The notes under the pieces were generated by a model. That model saw only the letters and a list, made by a program, of their open reading frames with translations. It searched no databases and was not told where the DNA came from. Shown here piece by piece: positions 1-9,656 of a stretch of DNA of 19,760 bases. Origin of the DNA: a virus (lineage: Duplodnaviria; Heunggongvirae; Uroviricota; Caudoviricetes); the IMG/VR virus record IMGVR_UViG_2740892274_000002; one strand, written 5' to 3'. Position numbers and translations under genes: made by a program. How positions within the stretch are numbered: position 1 is the stretch's first letter; each line of letters begins with the position of its first letter.

Positions 1-3000
1 ATACGCTATACCGTTAAAAATAATGGGCGGAATAATAATCTGGCGGTCAAAGTTATGATCATCGCTTATGGTGACTGTAACCGTCCCGTTTGGTGTTTCC
101 GTGTTACCCCACGTACCAGCCTGTTTCGGAAATGATTTGGATACAGCTTTAACGAAGTCACCTCTGACCTGAGTCGCCTCCAGCATGCCCTTAATCGTAC
201 AGTTTTCATTTACCGTGACATTGTTGAGCGTCCCGGCGTTCGCATTCACACTGCCACTGATATCCGCATTTTTAGCGGTCAGCTTTCCGTCCGGAGTCAG
301 GGAAAATGCCGATGGATTTCCACCGCTGGTAATGGTGGGGGCCGTCAGGCGTTTCAGGAACACGTCGTTCATGAATATCTGATCGCCCTGACCAACAAAC
401 ATCGGTTTTGTGTTGCCATTCGCAGGATTAACCATCGCAATCCTGTCCGCCGCCAGCAGCACCTGACTCTGCATGCCGTCAGGGGTGTTCTCAATACCGG
501 CACCAATACCCGCGATATAAAGGCGTCCGTCCTGCATCTGCTGCAGCTTCACAGCCCACATGCTGTTCAGGTTATTATTTGTATCAACCTGAACCTTCTG
601 TATCTGCTGAATTGCCGCACTCTGGTCTTCCAGTTTCTTATTGACGGTCTGCGTGATTTCATTGCTGACATCCGTAATGGACGTCCTGATTTCAGCCAGG
701 TCAGGCGCAAGCTGACCGTTATCAATCTGCGTCCACAGCTCCTGAGCCAGATGGGTTTTCCCTATCTCGCCTTTGAAAAAATCCAGATAACCGGATGCAT
801 CATCACTCGGCTGACCAACAGCCTCCACGAATGCCGATTTGCCAACGGTGTTCACACTGCGGATATAAAAGTAATAATCATGGCCCGGTTTGATATTGAT
901 ACTGGCGGCTATCCAGTACAGCGCCGTGCCAAGATAGCGTGCTGTGGTTTCAACCTGCCTGATATCCGCAATCCGCTTTTCCGAGAACCAGAACTCAAAC
1001 TGTACCGTCGGATCATAAACCGCAAGATGCGGCGTGGCGGTTATCTGAAAATAGCCCGGCGTCAGCTCAATCCGCGACAGCGCTGCCGGTGCGGCAATCC
1101 GGAACGATACCGACGCCGGATCGCCCTGCTGCCCCCACGCATTTACTGCCCGGACTGTCAGCCTGTAGTTCCCCAGCGCCAGTTGTGTGAAGCGGTAAGT
1201 GGTTTCCGTCGTCCGGGCCGTGCTGACCNNNNNNNNNNNNNNNNNNNNNNNNNNNNNNNNNNNNNNNNNNNNNNNNNNNNNNNNNNNNNNNNNNNNNNNN
1301 NNNNNNNNNNNNNNNNNNNNNNNNNNNNNNNNNNNNNNNNNNNNNNNNNNNNNNNNNNNNNNNNNNNNNNNNNNNNNNNNNNNNNNNNNNNNNNNNNNNN
1401 NNNNNNNNNNNNNNNNNNNNNNNNNNNNNNNNNNNNNNNNNNNNNNNNNNNNNNNNNNNNNNNNNNNNNNNNNNNNNNNNNNNNNNNNNNNACCGTCAGG
1501 AACACGGCTCACTTTTACCTTCACGCCGTCGGTGACGGACTGGACCTCCACGCTGACCGGATTCCCCTGCCCGTCAACCAGGCTTATCAGCGTGGTGCCG
1601 GAGGATGGCAGCGTGATTTCACGGTCGAGCGTCAGCGTCCGGGTCTGGCTGTTCACCGCCAGCACGCGCCCGCCGGTGCGGATACCGGCATAGTCATCAT
1701 CGCAGATTTCAATGACATCGCCCGGTACATGACGAAGCCCTTCAGCACCCACGCTGAAATCCACGGTCTGCGTCTCCAGCAGTTCCGTTTTAATCAGCCA
1801 CAGCCCGGCGCGGTGTGCCTGCCCCCGGCTGGTACAGCCAAAGGCATCCATCTTCGTGACGTTACGACCGTAACGGACAATGGCCTGCGTATCCTCCACA
1901 AGCTCTGTCGCCGTCTCCCAGCCGTTATCCGGGTCAATCCAGTTCACCTCAACGGCATTATGGCGGTCTTTCAGGGCGCTGAAACTGTAGCGGAACGGCG
2001 CGCCATCATCCGGCATCACCACATTACTGCGGTTATAGGCCCACACCTTATCCGACTGTCGGTCCTGCACGAACGTCAGCGTCTGCCCGTTCCATACCGG
2101 CATACAGCGCATCGCCGAGCAGAAATCACTGAGCACATCCCACGCCTTGCGCTGTGTGGTCAGCCAGGCATTACAGGTGATGCGCGGCTCCGTGCTGCCA
2201 AAGCCGTCCGGCACCGACTGGTCACAGTACTGGCCGATGACATACAGCGCCCATTTATCCACATCTGCCGCACCAAGACGTTTCCCCATGCCATAGCGCG
2301 GATGGGTCAGCATATCCCACAGACACCAGGCCATGTTGTTGCTGTATGCCGGTTTTAACGTTCCGTCCCAGATACCGCTGTATTGCCGCGTCTGCGGATT
2401 ATAGTTCGACGGCACCTGCAGAATGCGCCCGCGAAGATGATAATTACGGCTCACCTGCTGGCTGCCGAACTGCTCCGAATCCACCTGTACGCCGACCAGT
2501 GCCGTGTTCGGGTAGCACTGTTTCACATCGATGATTTCGGTGTATGACGACCAGAGCGTTTTGTTCTGCAGCTGGTCTGTGGTGCTGTCCGGCGTCATTC
2601 NNNNNNNNNNNNNNNNNNNNNNNNNNNNNNNNNNNNNNNNNNNNNNNNNNNNNNNNNNNNNNNNNNNNNNNNNNNNNNNNNNNNNNNNNNNNNNNNNNNN
2701 NNNNNNNNNNNNNNNNNNNNNNNNNNNNNNNNNNNNNNNNNNNNNNNNNNNNNNNNNNNNNNNNNNNNNNNNNNNNNNNNNNNNNNNNNNNNNNNNNNNN
2801 NNNNNNNNNNNNNTTTCACTTCCGTACCCAGCACCGTCTCGGAGCCGGAGGATTCAAATCCCTCCGGCGGTGACTGCTCCTGCTCACCTGCCCGGAACAC
2901 CACCGTGACGCCGGAGATGTTGGTATTCCCCTCACTGTCCAGCACCGGCGTACTGTTCAGCAGCACGCTTTTTAATCCATCCACCGGACCTTCAACCGGC

Positions 3001-3098
3001 CCTTCGCTGATGGCATCGATCACACTCAGCAGCTGCGTGGACTTCAGGTTGTCCTTCGCTTCGCGCGGGGTATGCCCCTTACTGCTGCCTTTACCCAT
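1..3098 (-). CDS. J: Tail tip host-specificity protein J (central tail fibre), 5' partial: C-terminal end lies beyond window start; interrupted by two N-runs
   Basis: ATG at 3096-3098 with GGAG 5 nt upstream. N-terminus [24 protein letters not shown] matches lambda gpJ from memory. My own translation finds J-frame peptides on both sides of the N-runs: [26 protein letters not shown] (2521-2598), [23 protein letters not shown] (1492-1560), [29 protein letters not shown] (1141-1227), [27 protein letters not shown] (310-393). The frame continues to position 1. Confidence 0.9.
1229..1491. other. Run of 263 N (assembly gap or masked sequence) inside J
   Basis: Literal n characters. J frame is the same on both sides in window coordinates. 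Confidence 0.99.
2601..2813. other. Run of 213 N (assembly gap or masked sequence) inside J
   Basis: Literal n characters. J frame above the run (codon ends at 2816, 3098) and below it (codon ends at 2598) differ by one position. Confidence 0.99.
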
Positions 3099-3158
3099 TC
3101 GTCATGCTCCATAAACGATAAAACCGCCCGGAGGCGATTTCACATAAAACATTTTGCA

Positions 3159-3830
3159 TCAGCGACCAATCACCACAACCTGACCACCGTCCCCTTCGTC
3201 TGCCGTGCTGATCTCCTGAGATACCACACGTGACCCCACGCGCATTTCACCATACAGAACAGGCATAACATTGCCCTGGGCAACCATGTTATCCAGTGAG
3301 GAGAAATAGGTGTTCTGCTTACCGTTATCCGTTGTCTGTGTGCGGGGAGTTCTGGCTTTCGGTGCCAGCATCTGAGCCACACCGCCGAGCACCATACTGG
3401 CACCGAGAGAAAACAGAATGCCGGTCATACCACCGGCACCAATGGCAGCCCCCCATGCTGCAAGGGTGGCTCCGGCGGTAAAGAATGATCCGGCAATGGC
3501 GGCTGCTCCCAGGACAATCTGGAATACACCACCTGACTTGGCCCCGGCGACTCTGGGAACAATATGAATCACAGCGCCGTCAGGCAGAGCCTCATGTAAC
3601 TGTGCCGTTAATCCGGACGTGCTAACATCCTGCCCGGCAATACGCACCTGATACCAGCCGTCGCTCAGCTTCTGACGAAACGCAGGGAGCTGTGTGGCCA
3701 TCGCCCGGATGGCTTCGGCACCCGTTTTCACACGAAGGTCGATGCGGCGGCCAAATCGTTGCAAATCCCCGTAAAGGCAGATGCGTGCCATGCCCGGTGA
3801 CGCCAGAGGGAGTGTGTGCGTCGCTGCCAT
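3159..3830 (-). CDS. I: Tail tip assembly protein I
   Basis: 223-aa ORF MAATHTLPLASPGMARICLYGDLQRFGRRIDLRVKTG matches lambda gpI from memory. C-terminal Gly/Ala-rich hydrophobic segment. Overlaps the 3' end of K by 103 nt. Confidence 0.93.
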   Translation of the reverse strand: MAATHTLPLASPGMARICLYGDLQRFGRRIDLRVKTGAEAIRAMATQLPAFRQKLSDGWYQVRIAGQDVSTSGLTAQLHEALPDGAVIHIVPRVAGAKSGGVFQIVLGAAAIAGSFFTAGATLAAWGAAIGAGGMTGILFSLGASMVLGGVAQMLAPKARTPRTQTTDNGKQNTYFSSLDNMVAQGNVMPVLYGEMRVGSRVVSQEISTADEGDGGQVVVIGR

Positions 3831-4471
3831 TTGTCGGTGTACCTCTCTCGTTTACTCAGTTGTTCAGGAATATGGTGCAGCAGCTCGCCGTCACCACAGT
3901 AAATGGCGGCATGATTCGGCACCGATGAACCAAAACAGCACAGCAGCACATCGCCCGGCTGCGCCGCTGACAACGGCACCTGATACAGCCCTGTGGCCTC
4001 CAGATTATCCAGATAGAGATTCTGACCGTGACGCCACCAGTCATCCTCACGATGAAAATCCGGCATCTCAATCCCCGCCAGATGGTAAGCATCCCGGAAC
4101 AGCGTGTAACAGTCCGTCACCCCGTGCTCAAAGCGCCGCCCGGTAAGATGTGGCACACAGCGGAACTTGTGAATCGCCCCCCGGCAGACCAGCCACCACG
4201 GCAAATCACTCTGCACCTGCAGCCGCCGGTCGGCCTCACTCAGCCAGGGCAGACCACCGGGGTGGCTGTGGACCAGTGCCACAATCTCACCCTGCATCTC
4301 TGCCTGCAGCCAGTCTTCCGGCGACATACGGAAATACGCCTCCGGCTCACCGGAGATATTCACGCAGGGGAAATATCTTTCCCCCTCCGGCGTTCTTACC
4401 ACGAAGCCGCACGACTCCGCTGGAGCACATCGCCGGGCGTGCGCCAGAATCGCTGATTCTGTCTCTGTCAT
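3728..4471 (-). CDS. K: Tail tip assembly protein K (MPN/JAMM-like plus NlpC/P60-like domains); long form from the first ATG
   Basis: 247-aa ORF MTETESAILAHARRC starting 5 nt after the L stop. Contains HSHPGGLPWLSEAD (HxHx7Sx2D JAMM signature) with a candidate upstream Glu at residue 20 (spacing 48), and a C-terminal Cys/His-containing NlpC/P60-like region. An internal ATG at 4325-4327 with an upstream GGAGG corresponds to the start of the 199-aa form I recall for lambda. Confidence 0.85.
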   Translation of the reverse strand: MTETESAILAHARRCAPAESCGFVVRTPEGERYFPCVNISGEPEAYFRMSPEDWLQAEMQGEIVALVHSHPGGLPWLSEADRRLQVQSDLPWWLVCRGAIHKFRCVPHLTGRRFEHGVTDCYTLFRDAYHLAGIEMPDFHREDDWWRHGQNLYLDNLEATGLYQVPLSAAQPGDVLLCCFGSSVPNHAAIYCGDGELLHHIPEQLSKRERYTDKWQRRTHSLWRHRAWHASAFTGICNDLAAASTFV

Positions 4472-4476
4472 GGGAT

Positions 4477-5175
4477 TTACTGCGAAAGTTTGTTAATGGA
4501 AAGGAAGCCGCCAAAGTTGCCGACGTTATTGCGAAACTTACAGCCACTCAGGCATTTGCTGCATTTATCCTTCGTGATGTCGGACGTTGGCTGGTCATAT
4601 TCATCCGCGACCGCCGGACCGTGATAACCGCACTCATCGCCGCGATAGGTCCAGGTGCAGGTGTTGGCCAGCATGATACGTCCCGGAAAAACAGCGCCAT
4701 CTGTTTCCGTCGGCGTGGACAGTACAAAAGAGGCACTCACCGCGCTCAGTTCGCTGCACTGCTCAATGCGCCAGCGGCTGATCACCTCCTGCTCCGGATC
4801 GGCGTCACTGTTTCCGTTGACGAAGTTCACCGCATCCAGAAAACGGGCGTAAACCTTACGCCGGACCACCGTTCCGCCGACCAGACTCTGTAGATCTTCC
4901 GCCATCCCGGTGACCATACCGTACAGGTTAGAAACCATCAGCGTGGGGCGCGTACTGGTGCCTTTGCCATTCAGTTCAAAACCACTCCCCTGAATGGGAT
5001 ACGGCTGATACTGTCGCCCCTGCCAGGTGACCGGCTCACCTTTTTCGTTCTGCTCATTACAGAAAAAATAACGTTCTCCACCGACCTCTGTCAGATCGAT
5101 TTCCCAGAGCACCACGCTGGCCGACTGCTCCGCACGGGTGCATTCATTCAGTGTTTCCTGCCGGATATCCTGCAT
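4477..5175 (-). CDS. L: Tail tip protein L
   Basis: 232-aa ORF MQDIRQETLNECTRAEQSASVVLWEIDLTEVGGERYFFCNEQNEKGEPVTWQGRQY matches lambda gpL. Start overlaps the M stop (ATGA). Confidence 0.95.
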   Translation of the reverse strand: MQDIRQETLNECTRAEQSASVVLWEIDLTEVGGERYFFCNEQNEKGEPVTWQGRQYQPYPIQGSGFELNGKGTSTRPTLMVSNLYGMVTGMAEDLQSLVGGTVVRRKVYARFLDAVNFVNGNSDADPEQEVISRWRIEQCSELSAVSASFVLSTPTETDGAVFPGRIMLANTCTWTYRGDECGYHGPAVADEYDQPTSDITKDKCSKCLSGCKFRNNVGNFGGFLSINKLSQ

Positions 5176-5504
5176 CAGTTCACCACCTGTTCAAACTCTG
5201 CGCTGAACTCAACACGCAGCATACTGACCCGCGACGACCATTTTGCGCAGGTCACCTTTATCTGCCGCCACTCATAAGGCGGCGTCCACAGAAAGGCTTT
5301 CCAGCCCCCGTGCTCTTCCAGAAACGACTCCAGTACCATGGCCTCCTCACGGGGGACAGAAAGCGTCACGCTGTACGTTTTCAGGTTGGCATTCAGCCCG
5401 GCAGGCGCTCGCTGGGAATAGCCATCACCAAAGCGCACCTTTCTTACAGAAGGGGCCGAAGCCACATCCATACCGGGTTTCACTTTCCAGCGGAAGGTTT
5501 TCAT
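5175..5504 (-). CDS. M: Tail tip protein M
   Basis: 109-aa ORF MKTFRWKVKPGMDVASAPSVRKVRFGDGYSQRAPAGLN matches lambda gpM. Start overlaps the H stop. Confidence 0.95.
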   Translation of the reverse strand: MKTFRWKVKPGMDVASAPSVRKVRFGDGYSQRAPAGLNANLKTYSVTLSVPREEAMVLESFLEEHGGWKAFLWTPPYEWRQIKVTCAKWSSRVSMLRVEFSAEFEQVVN

Positions 5505-8062
5505 CGTCCACCTCCGGAGAACAGGCCACCATCACGCATCTGTGTCTGAATTTCATCACGGGCACCCTTGCGGGCCATGTCATACACGGCCTTCATCATC
5601 TGTGGACCTGGCAGACCATTCGTACCGTCGTTCTGAATCACCACGTGATTGTTCTGATTAAAATTAATGCCTTCAGCCCGCCGCATCTGCGCCGGACTTC
5701 CGGCACCGCCCACATAACCACCTTCCGCATAGCCGCGCATCAGCCGGTAGAGATTCCCCACGCCAATCCGGCTGGTTGCCTCCTTCGTGAAGACAAATTC
5801 ACCACGGTGAACAATCCCCGCTGGCTCATATTTGCCGCCGGTTCCCGTAAATCCCCCGGTTGCAAAATGGAATTTCACCGCAGCGGCCTGAATGGCTGTA
5901 CCACCTGACGCGGATGCGCCGCCACCAACAGCCCCGCCAATGGCGCTGCCGATACTCCCGACAATCCCCACCATTGCCTGCTTAAGCAGAATTTCTGTCA
6001 TCATGGACAGCACGGAGCGGGTGAAGCTGCGCCAGTTCTGTTCACTGCCGGTCAGCATCGCCGCCATATTCTGTGCAATACCATCAAAGGTCTGCGTGGC
6101 TGCACTTTTAACCTGTGACATACTGTCCGTGGCGCTCTCTTCCCACTCACTCCAGCCGGACTTCAGGCCTGCCATCCAGCTCCCGCGAAGCTGGTCTTCA
6201 GCCGCCCAGGTCTTTTTCTGCTCTGACATGACGTTATTCAGCGCCAGAGGATTATCGCCATACTGTTCCTTCAGGCGCTGTTCCGTGGCTTCCCGCGCTG
6301 CCTGCCGGTCAGTCAGCCCCCGGTTTTTCGCATCAATGGCTGCCCGTTTTGCCCGTTGCTGCTGTGCGAATTTATCCGCCTGCTGCGCCAGCGCATTCAG
6401 GTGCTCCTGATACGTAACCTTGTCACCAAGTGCAGCCAGCTGGCGTTTGTACTCCAGCGTCTCGTCTTTATGCGCCAGCAGGGATTTCTCCTGTGCGGAC
6501 AGCTGGCGACGTTGTGCCGCCTCCTCCAGTACCGCGAACTGACTTTCTGCCTTCCACAAATCCCGGCGCTGCTGGCTGATTTTCTCATTCGCTCCGGCAT
6601 GCTTCTCCAGCGTCCGGAGTTCTGCCTGAAGCGTCAGCAGGGCCGCATGAGCACTGTCTTCCTGACGATCGCCCGCATACACCTTCACGCCGGACTGTTT
6701 CGGCTTTTTCAGCGTCGCTTCATAATCCTTTTTCGCCGCCGCCATCAGCGTGTTGTAATCTGCCTGCAGGATTTTTCCGTCTTTCAGTGCCTTGTTCAGT
6801 TCTTCCTGACGGGCGGTATATTTCTCCAGCGGCGTCTGCAGCCGTTCGTAAGCCTTCTGCGCCTCTTCGGTATATTTCAGCCGTGACGCTTCGGTATCGC
6901 TCTGCTGCTGCGCATTTTTGTCCTGTTGACGCTGTTGATCTACCCTCTTTTGGGCTGCATCCCGCTCCAGGCGTTTTTTTTCACGATCATCCCAGTAACG
7001 CGCCCGTGCTTCATCGTTAACGAAATAATCATCCTTGCGCAGATTCCAGATGTCGTCTGCTTTCTTAAACGCAGCCTCTGCCTTAATCAGCATCTCCTGC
7101 GCGGTATCAGGACGACCAATATCCAGCACCGCATCCCACATGGATTTGAATGCACGTGCAGTCCTGTCTGCCCAGGTCTCCAGCGTGCCCATGTTCTCTT
7201 TCAGGCGGCGGGTCTGGTCATCAAACCCTTTCGTTGCGGCCTCGTTCGCCGCCTGCAATGCCCCGGCTTCATCGCCGGAACGCTGCAACTGAGCAACATA
7301 CGCAATCTGCTCCGCCGTCACGTTATGGAACTGGCGTGCCATCGCCGTCAGCCCCGACGTCGGGTCTGTGGTCAGCTTCCCGAAGGCTTCAGCGACCTTG
7401 TCCACCTCCACGCCGGATGCATAGGAGAAACGCGCCACACTCTGGCTGATGGACGCAATCTGAGCCTCACCGCTTACCCCCGCCTTAACCAGTGCGCTGA
7501 GTGACTCGCTGGTCTGGTTAAACGTCAGCCCTGCCGCCTGCCCGGCTCTGGACAGGACCAGCATACGATCTGCCGTCAGTCCCGCCTGATTACCGGAAAG
7601 GACCAGCGTTTTGTTGAAATCGGACAGGGTTGAGTTGCCCTGATACCAGGCATACGCCAGCGCACCGGTCGCCACCGCCAGCGAGGTGGCCCCCACCATC
7701 GGCAGGGTGATCGCGCCGGCAAGCCCCCTGAACATGGGGATCATCCCGCCGAAGGAGTCCTTAACCTGACCACCCTGTTGCAGCAGGATCAGCCAGGGAT
7801 TCTGCCCCCCTGCAAGCTGCGTGGCCACGTCGGTGAACTGTGCAGGCAGCATACGCATGGCGGCTTTATACTGCCCGACGGAAATCCCCGCTTTCTGTGC
7901 AGCCAGCGCCTGTCGGCTCAGCGACTGTTCAACGACTGCCGCTGTTTTTTTCGCATCACTTTCCGTACCGGAAAAATGACGCCTGACTCTGGCCATCTGC
8001 TCGTCAAATCTGGCCGCATCCAGACTCAAATCAACGACCAGATCGCCTACCGGTTCAGCCAT
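5501..8062 (-). CDS. H: Tail tape measure protein H
   Basis: 853-aa ORF MAEPVGDLVVDLSLDAARFDEQMARVRRHF, Ala/Gln/Lys/Glu-rich coiled-coil composition, same length as lambda gpH; sits between T and M. Confidence 0.95.
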   Translation of the reverse strand: MAEPVGDLVVDLSLDAARFDEQMARVRRHFSGTESDAKKTAAVVEQSLSRQALAAQKAGISVGQYKAAMRMLPAQFTDVATQLAGGQNPWLILLQQGGQVKDSFGGMIPMFRGLAGAITLPMVGATSLAVATGALAYAWYQGNSTLSDFNKTLVLSGNQAGLTADRMLVLSRAGQAAGLTFNQTSESLSALVKAGVSGEAQIASISQSVARFSYASGVEVDKVAEAFGKLTTDPTSGLTAMARQFHNVTAEQIAYVAQLQRSGDEAGALQAANEAATKGFDDQTRRLKENMGTLETWADRTARAFKSMWDAVLDIGRPDTAQEMLIKAEAAFKKADDIWNLRKDDYFVNDEARARYWDDREKKRLERDAAQKRVDQQRQQDKNAQQQSDTEASRLKYTEEAQKAYERLQTPLEKYTARQEELNKALKDGKILQADYNTLMAAAKKDYEATLKKPKQSGVKVYAGDRQEDSAHAALLTLQAELRTLEKHAGANEKISQQRRDLWKAESQFAVLEEAAQRRQLSAQEKSLLAHKDETLEYKRQLAALGDKVTYQEHLNALAQQADKFAQQQRAKRAAIDAKNRGLTDRQAAREATEQRLKEQYGDNPLALNNVMSEQKKTWAAEDQLRGSWMAGLKSGWSEWEESATDSMSQVKSAATQTFDGIAQNMAAMLTGSEQNWRSFTRSVLSMMTEILLKQAMVGIVGSIGSAIGGAVGGGASASGGTAIQAAAVKFHFATGGFTGTGGKYEPAGIVHRGEFVFTKEATSRIGVGNLYRLMRGYAEGGYVGGAGSPAQMRRAEGINFNQNNHVVIQNDGTNGLPGPQMMKAVYDMARKGARDEIQTQMRDGGLFSGGGR

Positions 8063-8489
8063 ACCGGACTCCTCCTGCGATCCCTTCTGATACTGTCATC
8101 AGCATTACGTCATCCTCCGTCATGTCCGCCACATCCGGGGAAGCGGGGATAACTTCATTCCCGTCCGGGCCAAAGCGGACACCTCCGGCAAGCCCTGCCG
8201 CTTTCTGCATCAGCACATCATCTTCAGGCTCTTCGTCAGCCTCGCGCCGGTTCAGCAGACTGAAATCCAGCGGATGCATCTCCGGATCGCTGAAAAACAG
8301 GCTGAGCACGGTGTACGTCAGCCCGGAAAAGTGCATATCCAGCAGAACATCATGAAAATAATGGGTACTGTAAAAGCGGTGCCAGTCGGCATACTCCGTG
8401 GATGACATCCCGGCAAGCATGGCGCGCCAGTCGGGTCGCCCCATCTCACGCGCCAGTTTCAGGGCAAAACTCAGCTCACCGTCGAACAC
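8055..8489 (-). CDS. T: T-frame portion of the G-T tail assembly chaperone, expressed by -1 frameshift from G
   Basis: ORF in the -1 frame relative to G, beginning at the slippery heptamer and ending 8 nt inside H. Translation FDGELSFALKLAREMGRPDWRAMLAGMSSTEYADWHRFY matches lambda gpT. The GTG at 8487-8489 is not assumed to be an independent start. Confidence 0.85.
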   Translation of the reverse strand: MFDGELSFALKLAREMGRPDWRAMLAGMSSTEYADWHRFYSTHYFHDVLLDMHFSGLTYTVLSLFFSDPEMHPLDFSLLNRREADEEPEDDVLMQKAAGLAGGVRFGPDGNEVIPASPDVADMTEDDVMLMTVSEGIAGGVRYG

Positions 8490-8893
8490 TTTCCCGCAGA
8501 AACAGGCTCTGCAGGCCCGGCGTCCTCTGCCTGTTCAGGAGCATCATTCACCACAAACTCATACATACCGGACAGCCGGTACACCACGTTTTCAGCATGA
8601 GAAATTGCCTCTGTGGGCCAGGTGGTAAGCACTTCCTGCTCAATCTGTTTAACGGCTTCATTCATGGACGGCATCTGCGTCTTCTTCGGATGGTTATGCC
8701 ACAGGGACATCGCAACCACAAAAGCGCCGGTTCTGATGGCGTCTTCCACAGTAAACTTCCGGTTGCTGTCTGACTCCGCCTGTTCTGCCTGCCGTTTCAT
8801 CAGGTCGAGATGCTCAATACGCTGCAGGGCTGACAGTTCAGAAAGCGTGACGGTCACACCGTTATGTTCAAATGATTCGGTTTTCAGGAACAT
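8471..8893 (-). CDS. G: Tail assembly chaperone G
   Basis: 140-aa ORF MFLKTESFEHNGVTVTLSELSALQRIEHLDLMKRQAEQ matches lambda gpG; immediately downstream of V. Confidence 0.95.
   Translation of the reverse strand: MFLKTESFEHNGVTVTLSELSALQRIEHLDLMKRQAEQAESDSNRKFTVEDAIRTGAFVVAMSLWHNHPKKTQMPSMNEAVKQIEQEVLTTWPTEAISHAENVVYRLSGMYEFVVNDAPEQAEDAGPAEPVSAGKCSTVS
8489..8495 (-). other. Programmed -1 ribosomal frameshift slippery heptamer GGGAAAG (G to G-T)
   Basis: Plus strand reads ctttccc at 8489-8495, which is GGGAAAG on the coding strand. It lies in the last codons of G (AGKCSTVS*) and the T frame opens exactly here. Confidence 0.85.
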
Positions 8894-8908
8894 CGCTGAC
8901 TCTCCGGA

Positions 8909-9649
8909 TTAACTGGCGGTGACGTTGATTTCTGCAACCGCAGCAAACTCACCATTACCAGATACGACCGGAATGTTGACCTTGCCTGCAGCAACACCTT
9001 TCACGGTGATGGTCATACCACTGACCGACACGGTGGCTTTTGTTTTATCCGCAGACACCGCACGGAAGCTCTTGTCGGTTGCGCCATCCGGCTGGAATGC
9101 CACGGTCAGCGTGGTGCTCTGCCCTTTCACTACGGAAGCACTGGCGGGTGTCACCGTCATGCCGGTCGTCGCCGTCACCGTGCTGCGATCTTCTGCCATC
9201 GACGGACGTCCCACATTGGTGACCTTCACCGTGCGGGTAATCACCTCCTTCGCCGTCACCGCCTTACCGATACTGCTGACCCAGCCACGGAACACATCGA
9301 CCGTGCCGTTCGGGAAGCGGATTTTATAGGCACGGGTATCACCTTCATTAAACCACGCCAGCAGCGCCTGCTGCCCCTGCTCTCCGGGCATCCACGCCAG
9401 CGTGAAGCTGGTATCTCCGGCAGATTTCTGCCCCTGCCCGGTCGCAGTCCAGTCTGCATCTTCATCATCGAGATAGCTGTCGTCATAGGACTCAGCGGTC
9501 AGTTCGCCGGGCGTCAGGTCTTTAACTTTTGCCAGACGCGACCAGTCAACGTCTGAAAGCGGGTTCGCATAAGGGTCACCGCTCCCCTTATAAACCCACA
9601 GGGTGGTCCCGGCACCTTTCACCGGCATTGTAGGATTTGGTACAGGCAT
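8909..9649 (-). CDS. V: Major tail tube protein V (with C-terminal Ig-like domain)
   Basis: Start taken at the ATG giving [22 protein letters not shown] (246 aa), matching lambda gpV; the ORF track's longer form begins 10 codons upstream. C-terminal region [25 protein letters not shown] looks like an Ig-like (Big_2-type) domain. Confidence 0.93.
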
Positions 9650-9656
9650 AGCGTCC

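Follow-up and report, generated by a model that had tools for sequence, protein, structure and literature searches.

What the distal end of gene J recognizes on the host cell is the question raised by a stretch of Caudoviricetes DNA of 19,760 nucleotides (nt) (IMG/VR record IMGVR_UViG_2740892274_000002; the whole stretch is referred to below as the window), which carries part of a lambda-like prophage. The gene for the J product (gpJ), the tip attachment protein or central tail fibre, occupies positions 1–3098 of the minus strand and is cut by the window edge at position 1. A preliminary description of the stretch had proposed that the J C-terminus is a swapped domain and that the prophage may use a receptor other than LamB, to which lambda binds. 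Our analysis supports this proposal: the end of J in the window is 92% identical to that of phage 434, whose receptor is OmpC, and 53.5% identical to that of lambda. We assign a probability of about 0.78 to the full explanation, i.e., a lambda-like J that is a two-cassette mosaic with a 434-type end, and OmpC as the receptor.

The peptide strings quoted in the preliminary description were reproduced exactly by minus-strand translation, as was the divergence from lambda at the very end of the fragment. The 76 residues encoded by positions 1–228 match 434 J at 70 of 76 positions (92.1%), whereas the alignment with lambda gpJ yields 38 identities over 71 aligned residues (53.5%) with five gap columns, and 60.1% identity at the nt level. 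Agreement is complete with phage phi458 (76/76), and with phage cdtI and several Stx1a and Stx2c prophages (75/75). Zone boundaries were placed by aligning the J fragment to J from lambda, 434 and phi458, and the exchanged C-terminal cassette comprises two parts. Positions 145–228 (minus strand, as for all J zones) encode the last β-prism strands of the central straight fibre (CSF) above the receptor-binding domain, with 26 of 28 residues as in 434 and 17 of 28 as in lambda. Positions 1–144 encode the N-terminal third of the Ig-like receptor-binding domain, which is identical to 434 at 44/48 residues, to phi458 at 48/48 and to lambda at 21/43 (48.8%), a value well short of close lambda-type identity. 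Pfam family PF12421 (Tip attachment protein J, C-terminal receptor binding domain) starts at residue 362 of the fragment, with positions 1–47 of its 135 inside the window (E = 6e-11), and the 28 residues that precede this start represent the fibre just above the domain. An insertion of two residues relative to lambda at about residue 1012 is seen in the window, and a deletion of six residues at about residue 1107, a position outside the window, is seen in the homologues phi458, Escherichia coli MB51 and 434; in a survey of 1,207 J homologues, these two positions were found to define natural J lineages (PMC6646904). The cassette at positions 1–228 can thus be assigned to the 434 (h434) type with high confidence.

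By its sequence, the window end is an already known, named and very common J host-range cassette and not a new domain. Positions 1–230 are found at a coverage of at least 80% in 2,099 of 5,426 complete E. coli genomes (~39%), nearly all at 90–99% identity; the best complete genome reaches 99.3% over 1,228 nt and 99.6% over 230 nt, and none is better. Divergence by chance or artefact was considered and rejected, since the same sequence is present in thousands of genomes and in plaque-forming phages.

About 89 codons of J and the stop codon lie beyond the window, as judged from the 1165-residue homologues of phi458 and E. coli MB51, and the last J residue in the window aligns with residue 1076 of the 1165 in phi458. 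The preliminary description was right to place the rest of the domain outside the window; what it missed is that the type is known and common, and that a second divergent module is found upstream. Because the window lacks the gene end, the 164-residue C-terminus of J from phi458, the nearest full-length homologue, was used as a probe for the full end. This probe shows 93.9% identity to J of lambda h434 imm21 and 38.5% to that of lambda, i.e., the full C-terminus, as represented by this homologue, lacks the high identity to lambda that would have run counter to the proposed domain swap. Across phage records, the identities to the 164-residue probe are bimodal, with 74 records at ≥90%, none between 60 and 90%, and the rest below 60%. 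The same numbers, 74 records at ≥90% and none at 60–90%, are obtained with separate probes for the 75 in-window and the 89 out-of-window residues, the agreement being one of record counts. Equal counts for both halves and for the whole suggest that the halves travel together, and the 89 residues outside the window are thus very probably of the 434 type as well. The closest chromosomal match, in E. coli MB51 (99.3% nt identity over 1,228 nt), continues with a 434-type end. A continuation of this kind would complete a J of ~1165 codons ending ...SDPGSGNNPGGTRY...KKAASGISIR.

The divergence from lambda is not confined to this end. J had been described as almost identical to lambda down to a string close to the distal cassette, which has to be corrected: the divergence sets in already at about position 795 (lambda residue 812), ~190 residues earlier, and the boundary was misplaced because a conserved island (positions 229–378) was taken for the end of a continuous lambda-identical part. 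In our alignments, the C-terminal third of J resolves into a mosaic of two exchangeable cassettes split by this 150-nt island. Positions 796–1228, the lambda-like part preceding the mosaic, encode the end of FNIII-1 and FNIII-2 (Ig_J / Ig_J_second; Pfam PF24421 and PF24489), where 138 of 144 residues (95.8%) are identical to lambda residues 668–811; residues 668–835 of chain J in PDB entry 8iyk were aligned with this FNIII region. Positions 379–795 hold a variable module, the long form of the α-helical shaft and upper β-prism fibre, which corresponds to lambda residues 812–922 and is identical to lambda at 56 of 111 residues (50.5%; ~62% at the nt level), to 434 at 51.4% and to phi458 at 100% of residues. 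Relative to both lambda and 434, this module contains 28 extra residues (roughly positions 634–723), and a blastn search with positions 563–731 finds no match in lambda or 434. The hydrophobic periodicity, a crude measure, peaks at 3.5 residues in both shaft versions, as for a helical bundle, and the proximal cassette would represent a shaft and upper-fibre variant that is four heptads longer than those of lambda and 434. Positions 480–790, covering the long shaft, are present in 3,548 of the 5,426 complete E. coli genomes (~65%); the long shaft is the common form in E. coli prophages, and the short form of lambda and 434 is the rarer one.

The island itself corresponds to lambda residues 923–972 and is identical to lambda at 48 of 50 residues, with 94.7% identity at the nt level and 87.5% at third codon positions. 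It contains lambda residue 964, the junction chosen by Brodel et al. 2024 to build functional gpJ chimeras by which lambda particles are redirected to OmpC (PMC11338833). The cassettes on its two sides assort independently, 434 having a short shaft with a 434 end, and the window and phi458 a long shaft with a 434 end. Chlobot and PhiR70_1 share the window sequence to about position 188 and then continue with another end, which in Chlobot is a different receptor-binding domain. The high identity of the island, also at third codon positions, compared with ~60–62% nt identity in the flanks, points to recent shared ancestry with lambda, and the pattern fits recombination. We infer that the cassettes are swapped by homologous recombination in conserved flanks, for which the island is a likely site.

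The same overall J arrangement is present in phi458 (OP434518), cdtI, PhiR26_1 and the Stx1a- and Stx2c-converting prophages of O157:H7, which differ from the window by a few scattered substitutions. The closest of these is phi458, with 99.1% nt identity across the last 1,000 nt of J in the window, an identical long shaft block, and 407 identical residues in the uninterrupted stretch of 409 that positions 1–1227 encode; among 50,697 phage records, cdtI, ev099 and Ayreon follow with 96–97% nt identity over the same 1,000 nt. The K-12 derivative MC1061 supports plaque formation by phi458, a siphovirus (PMC9701743). J of phage 434 and its h434 allele (OL657226 and OM418627) resemble the window in the distal cassette (92% over the 76 in-window residues, 94% over the last 164–165 residues in the homologues), in the indel pattern relative to lambda, and in the lambda-like N-terminal 800 residues; however, the shaft and upper-fibre block of the window is 28 residues longer and 51% identical to that of 434, and its distal cassette carries six in-window substitutions, several of which affect the loop that aligns with lambda residue 1012. 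Lambda gpJ (P03749; PDB codes 8iyk, 8xck and 8xcj, with LamB) is of the same family and domain order and is 96% identical over residues 668–811 and 923–972, but its shaft and upper fibre are 50.5% identical and 28 residues shorter, and the receptor-binding part, which in lambda binds LamB, is 49% identical in the window and 38.5% identical over the 164 residues of phi458.

In the gpJ structure, hub domains are followed by two FNIII domains, an α-helical shaft, a β-sheet prism that forms the CSF, and an Ig-like receptor-binding domain at the C-terminus; in lambda, four loops at the bottom of this last domain enter the LamB trimer, and upon LamB binding the domains spread, the prism twists, the shaft flips and the tube opens (PMC11101478). 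By analogy, the distal cassette (positions 1–228 and ~270 nt beyond the window) would form the last strands of the trimeric β-prism together with the Ig-like receptor-binding domain, and the bottom loops of this domain would insert into a trimeric porin (for 434 and lambda h434, OmpC instead of LamB). J proteins of lambda and 434 differ at eight positions within the first 972 residues, so that the host-range difference maps to the C-terminal region. When equipped with 434 J, lambda binds to the 434 receptor OmpC instead of LamB (PMC3509688, PMC11101478). Taken together with the small number of N-terminal differences, this places the OmpC specificity of 434 in the type of cassette that the window carries. 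Furthermore, natural prophage C-termini that replace lambda gpJ downstream of residue 964 suffice to switch lambda particles from LamB to OmpC (PMC11338833). We infer with moderate to good confidence that OmpC is the likely receptor of the prophage, and irreversible adsorption of its virions would most likely be to this porin.

OmpC is the target of several distinct natural J ends, i.e., those of 434, phi330, A8 and 1A2. The OmpC-specific ends A8 (PDB codes 9wca and 9wcb), 1A2 (Brodel et al. 2024) and phi330 are similar to the window end in that they replace the lambda end downstream of the same island and direct OmpC binding. However, phi330 is 44.8% identical over the 164 residues, and A8 and 1A2 have different sequences throughout the receptor-binding region. 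An assignment of the window end to A8 or 1A2 was rejected on comparison with PDB entry 9wca and the supplementary sequences of the paper, which are different sequence types, and the window end is not of the phi330 type either.

It would be very surprising if the tip still bound LamB in the manner of lambda despite its divergence. The two ends do belong to the same fold family (Pfam PF12421), and some lambdoid J proteins other than that of lambda use LamB, e.g., J of phage 21 (PMC11336670); the latter, however, reportedly shares 94% nt identity with lambda J (PMC11336670), whereas the domain type of the window is 38.5–53.5% identical to lambda and 92–94% identical to the 434 type, for which the receptor is OmpC and not LamB. 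Phage 21 was also considered as an OmpC-type relative and rejected as such, as its native receptor is LamB and its use of OmpC was evolved (PMC11336670).

A number of observations weigh against a straightforward transfer of the 434 receptor to this prophage. Relative to 434, the subtype seen here carries six substitutions among the 76 in-window residues, and the full-length homologues carry 9–10 in the last 165; four of the changes are located within or beside the loop homologous to lambda residue 1012, which is a known hot spot for specificity. The window covers one third of the receptor-binding domain (~47 of ~135 positions), the other two thirds falling beyond its edge, and an exact 200-mer taken from the window end had no match in genome contigs, so that the continuation is derived from homologues. 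Our literature search found no receptor data for phages with the identical subtype, phi458 among them, or for the PV3405xx phages induced from ECOR strains. Porin use by phage 21 can be altered by a single substitution in J (PMC11336670), and natural gpJ types specific for OmpC distinguish between alleles of this porin (PMC11338833). Finally, the frame-breaking lengths of N runs within J raise the possibility that the gene is interrupted or the scaffold misjoined.

The first of these points could mean that the cassette is 434-type by descent with a shifted specificity, being restricted to certain OmpC alleles or directed to another porin such as OmpF, which we regard as rather unlikely. The substitutions relative to 434 cluster in an 18-residue stretch, the loop into which lambda residue 1012 falls in the alignment; this residue and residue 1107 are key sites for the gain of OmpF use by lambda (PMC6646904); moreover, a single J mutation opens OmpC to phage 21 (PMC11336670), and the gpJ chimera 1A2 uses OmpC of EDL933 and not that of MG1655 (PMC11338833). 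On the other hand, the full-length homologues agree with 434 at 155–156 of their last 165 residues, phi458 with its identical in-window sequence plates on a K-12 derivative as 434 does, and no data point to a different porin for the window subtype. A related suggestion, that the subtype, with its changed loop at lambda residue 1012 and a shaft longer by four heptads, might recognize other OmpC alleles or another porin than classical 434, is decidedly doubtful in our estimate; if it were true, the longer shaft might also alter the transmission of receptor binding to the opening of the tail.

The N runs bear on the integrity of J as a whole. One spans positions 1229–1491 on the window and measures 263 nt, compared with 344 nt in the homologous part of lambda, phi458 and MB51 (a shortfall of 81 nt), with the frame kept; the other spans positions 2601–2813 and, with its 213 nt, is 49 nt shorter than the homologous stretch of the same three references, the J reading frame being different on either side. 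One uninterrupted frame of ~1130–1165 codons is expected of the gpJ family, whereas J in the window has two N runs and a 3' end outside the window. Judged from these features, the N runs would either be gaps to which the scaffolding of a repeated prophage gene assigned an estimated length, or conceal deletions. If they are gaps of estimated size, nothing follows from them about the gene; if they mask the sequence base for base, J is frameshifted. J might then be non-functional or non-contiguous, either as a decaying gene with a frameshifting deletion, or through a scaffold that joins J pieces from different prophages of one genome, and no receptor would be used by the element as assembled. We consider this unlikely, although the out-of-frame shortfall of 49 nt and that of 81 nt against three references, together with the frame switch across 2601–2813, speak for it, as do the multiple J-like sequences per E. 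coli genome (median 2, up to 13 places), which are typical of assembly breaks, and the cos overhang of the window, which is also a rare variant. Against it, the length of N runs in scaffolds is usually an estimate and their size says little, every readable J segment is open in a single frame on each side, and the mosaic lies wholly inside the uninterrupted positions 1–1228, which match J of a plaque-forming phage and of a complete genome from end to end at 99.1–99.3% identity. The two-cassette mosaic with the 434-type end, being free of gaps and present at 99% identity in a real phage J and a complete genome, is thus not an assembly artefact.

With regard to the protein family, the sequence matches place J of the window within the lambda gpJ family of tip attachment proteins or central tail fibres. 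The fragment matches Ig_J (partial), Ig_J_second (1.9e-38), Phage_Tail_Tip (1.9e-31) and Ig_GpJ_C (6e-11) in Pfam, and the full gpJ domain series (Phage-tail_3, FNIII-A_GpJ, Ig_J, Ig_J_second, Phage_Tail_Tip and Ig_GpJ_C) is present in the 99%-identical J of phi458. Chain J of PDB entry 8iyk aligns to the fragment with E = 1.8e-178. Prediction with AlphaFold2 without an alignment gave an unusable model of the 409-residue fragment (mean predicted local distance difference test score, pLDDT, 34; predicted template modelling score, pTM, 0.20), and the fold family was fixed by the Pfam and PDB sequence matches.

The start codon of J is an ATG at positions 3098–3096, and minus-strand translation of positions 1–3099 gives a frame that is open off the window at position 1. 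J adjoins gene I (3159–3830) and is the last gene in the lambda tail-tip order H-M-L-K-I-J. The window as a whole represents the left (morphogenetic) arm of the prophage on the minus strand, with cos, Nu1, A, W, B, C, D, E, the tail genes, H-M-L-K-I and J. Positions 2814–18590 are collinear with lambda positions 13–15789 at 97.2% nt identity, in agreement with the earlier statement that the rest of the tail module is near-identical to lambda.

Two further features were observed at the opposite side of the window. The 12-nt cohesive end of cosN (positions 18591–18602, minus strand) reads GGGCGGAAGGCG, compared with GGGCGGCGACCT in lambda, a difference of 5 bases in 12 between flanks identical to those of lambda. 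Over the full length of the 101-nt cos region, no phage record exceeds 94.1% identity; among complete E. coli genomes, the variant is matched at ≥99% by four records and at 95–99% by 47, compared with 3,301 at 90–95%, and APEC E14033 has an identical variant overhang. Judged from these comparisons, the overhang is a rare natural variant beside a lambda-like terminase. The last 88 nt of the window (19673–19760), upstream of cos on the phage map in a region that matches the lambda right end, are not covered by the best 40 phage matches, all of which end at position 19671–19672 or earlier; this edge may be a mosaic boundary in the late-gene region.

Ever since the classical h434 hybrids it has been known that lambdoid phages exchange J C-termini and that the 434 type is specific for OmpC; natural variation of the J end is already catalogued in >1,200 homologues, and the same junction is in use for the retargeting of lambda particles. 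The finding thus matters little beyond annotation. For annotation, J in this assembly is broken by gaps and should not be taken as an intact gene, the variable part of J would have to be described as two independent cassettes and not as one, and the receptor of the prophage can be named as likely OmpC.

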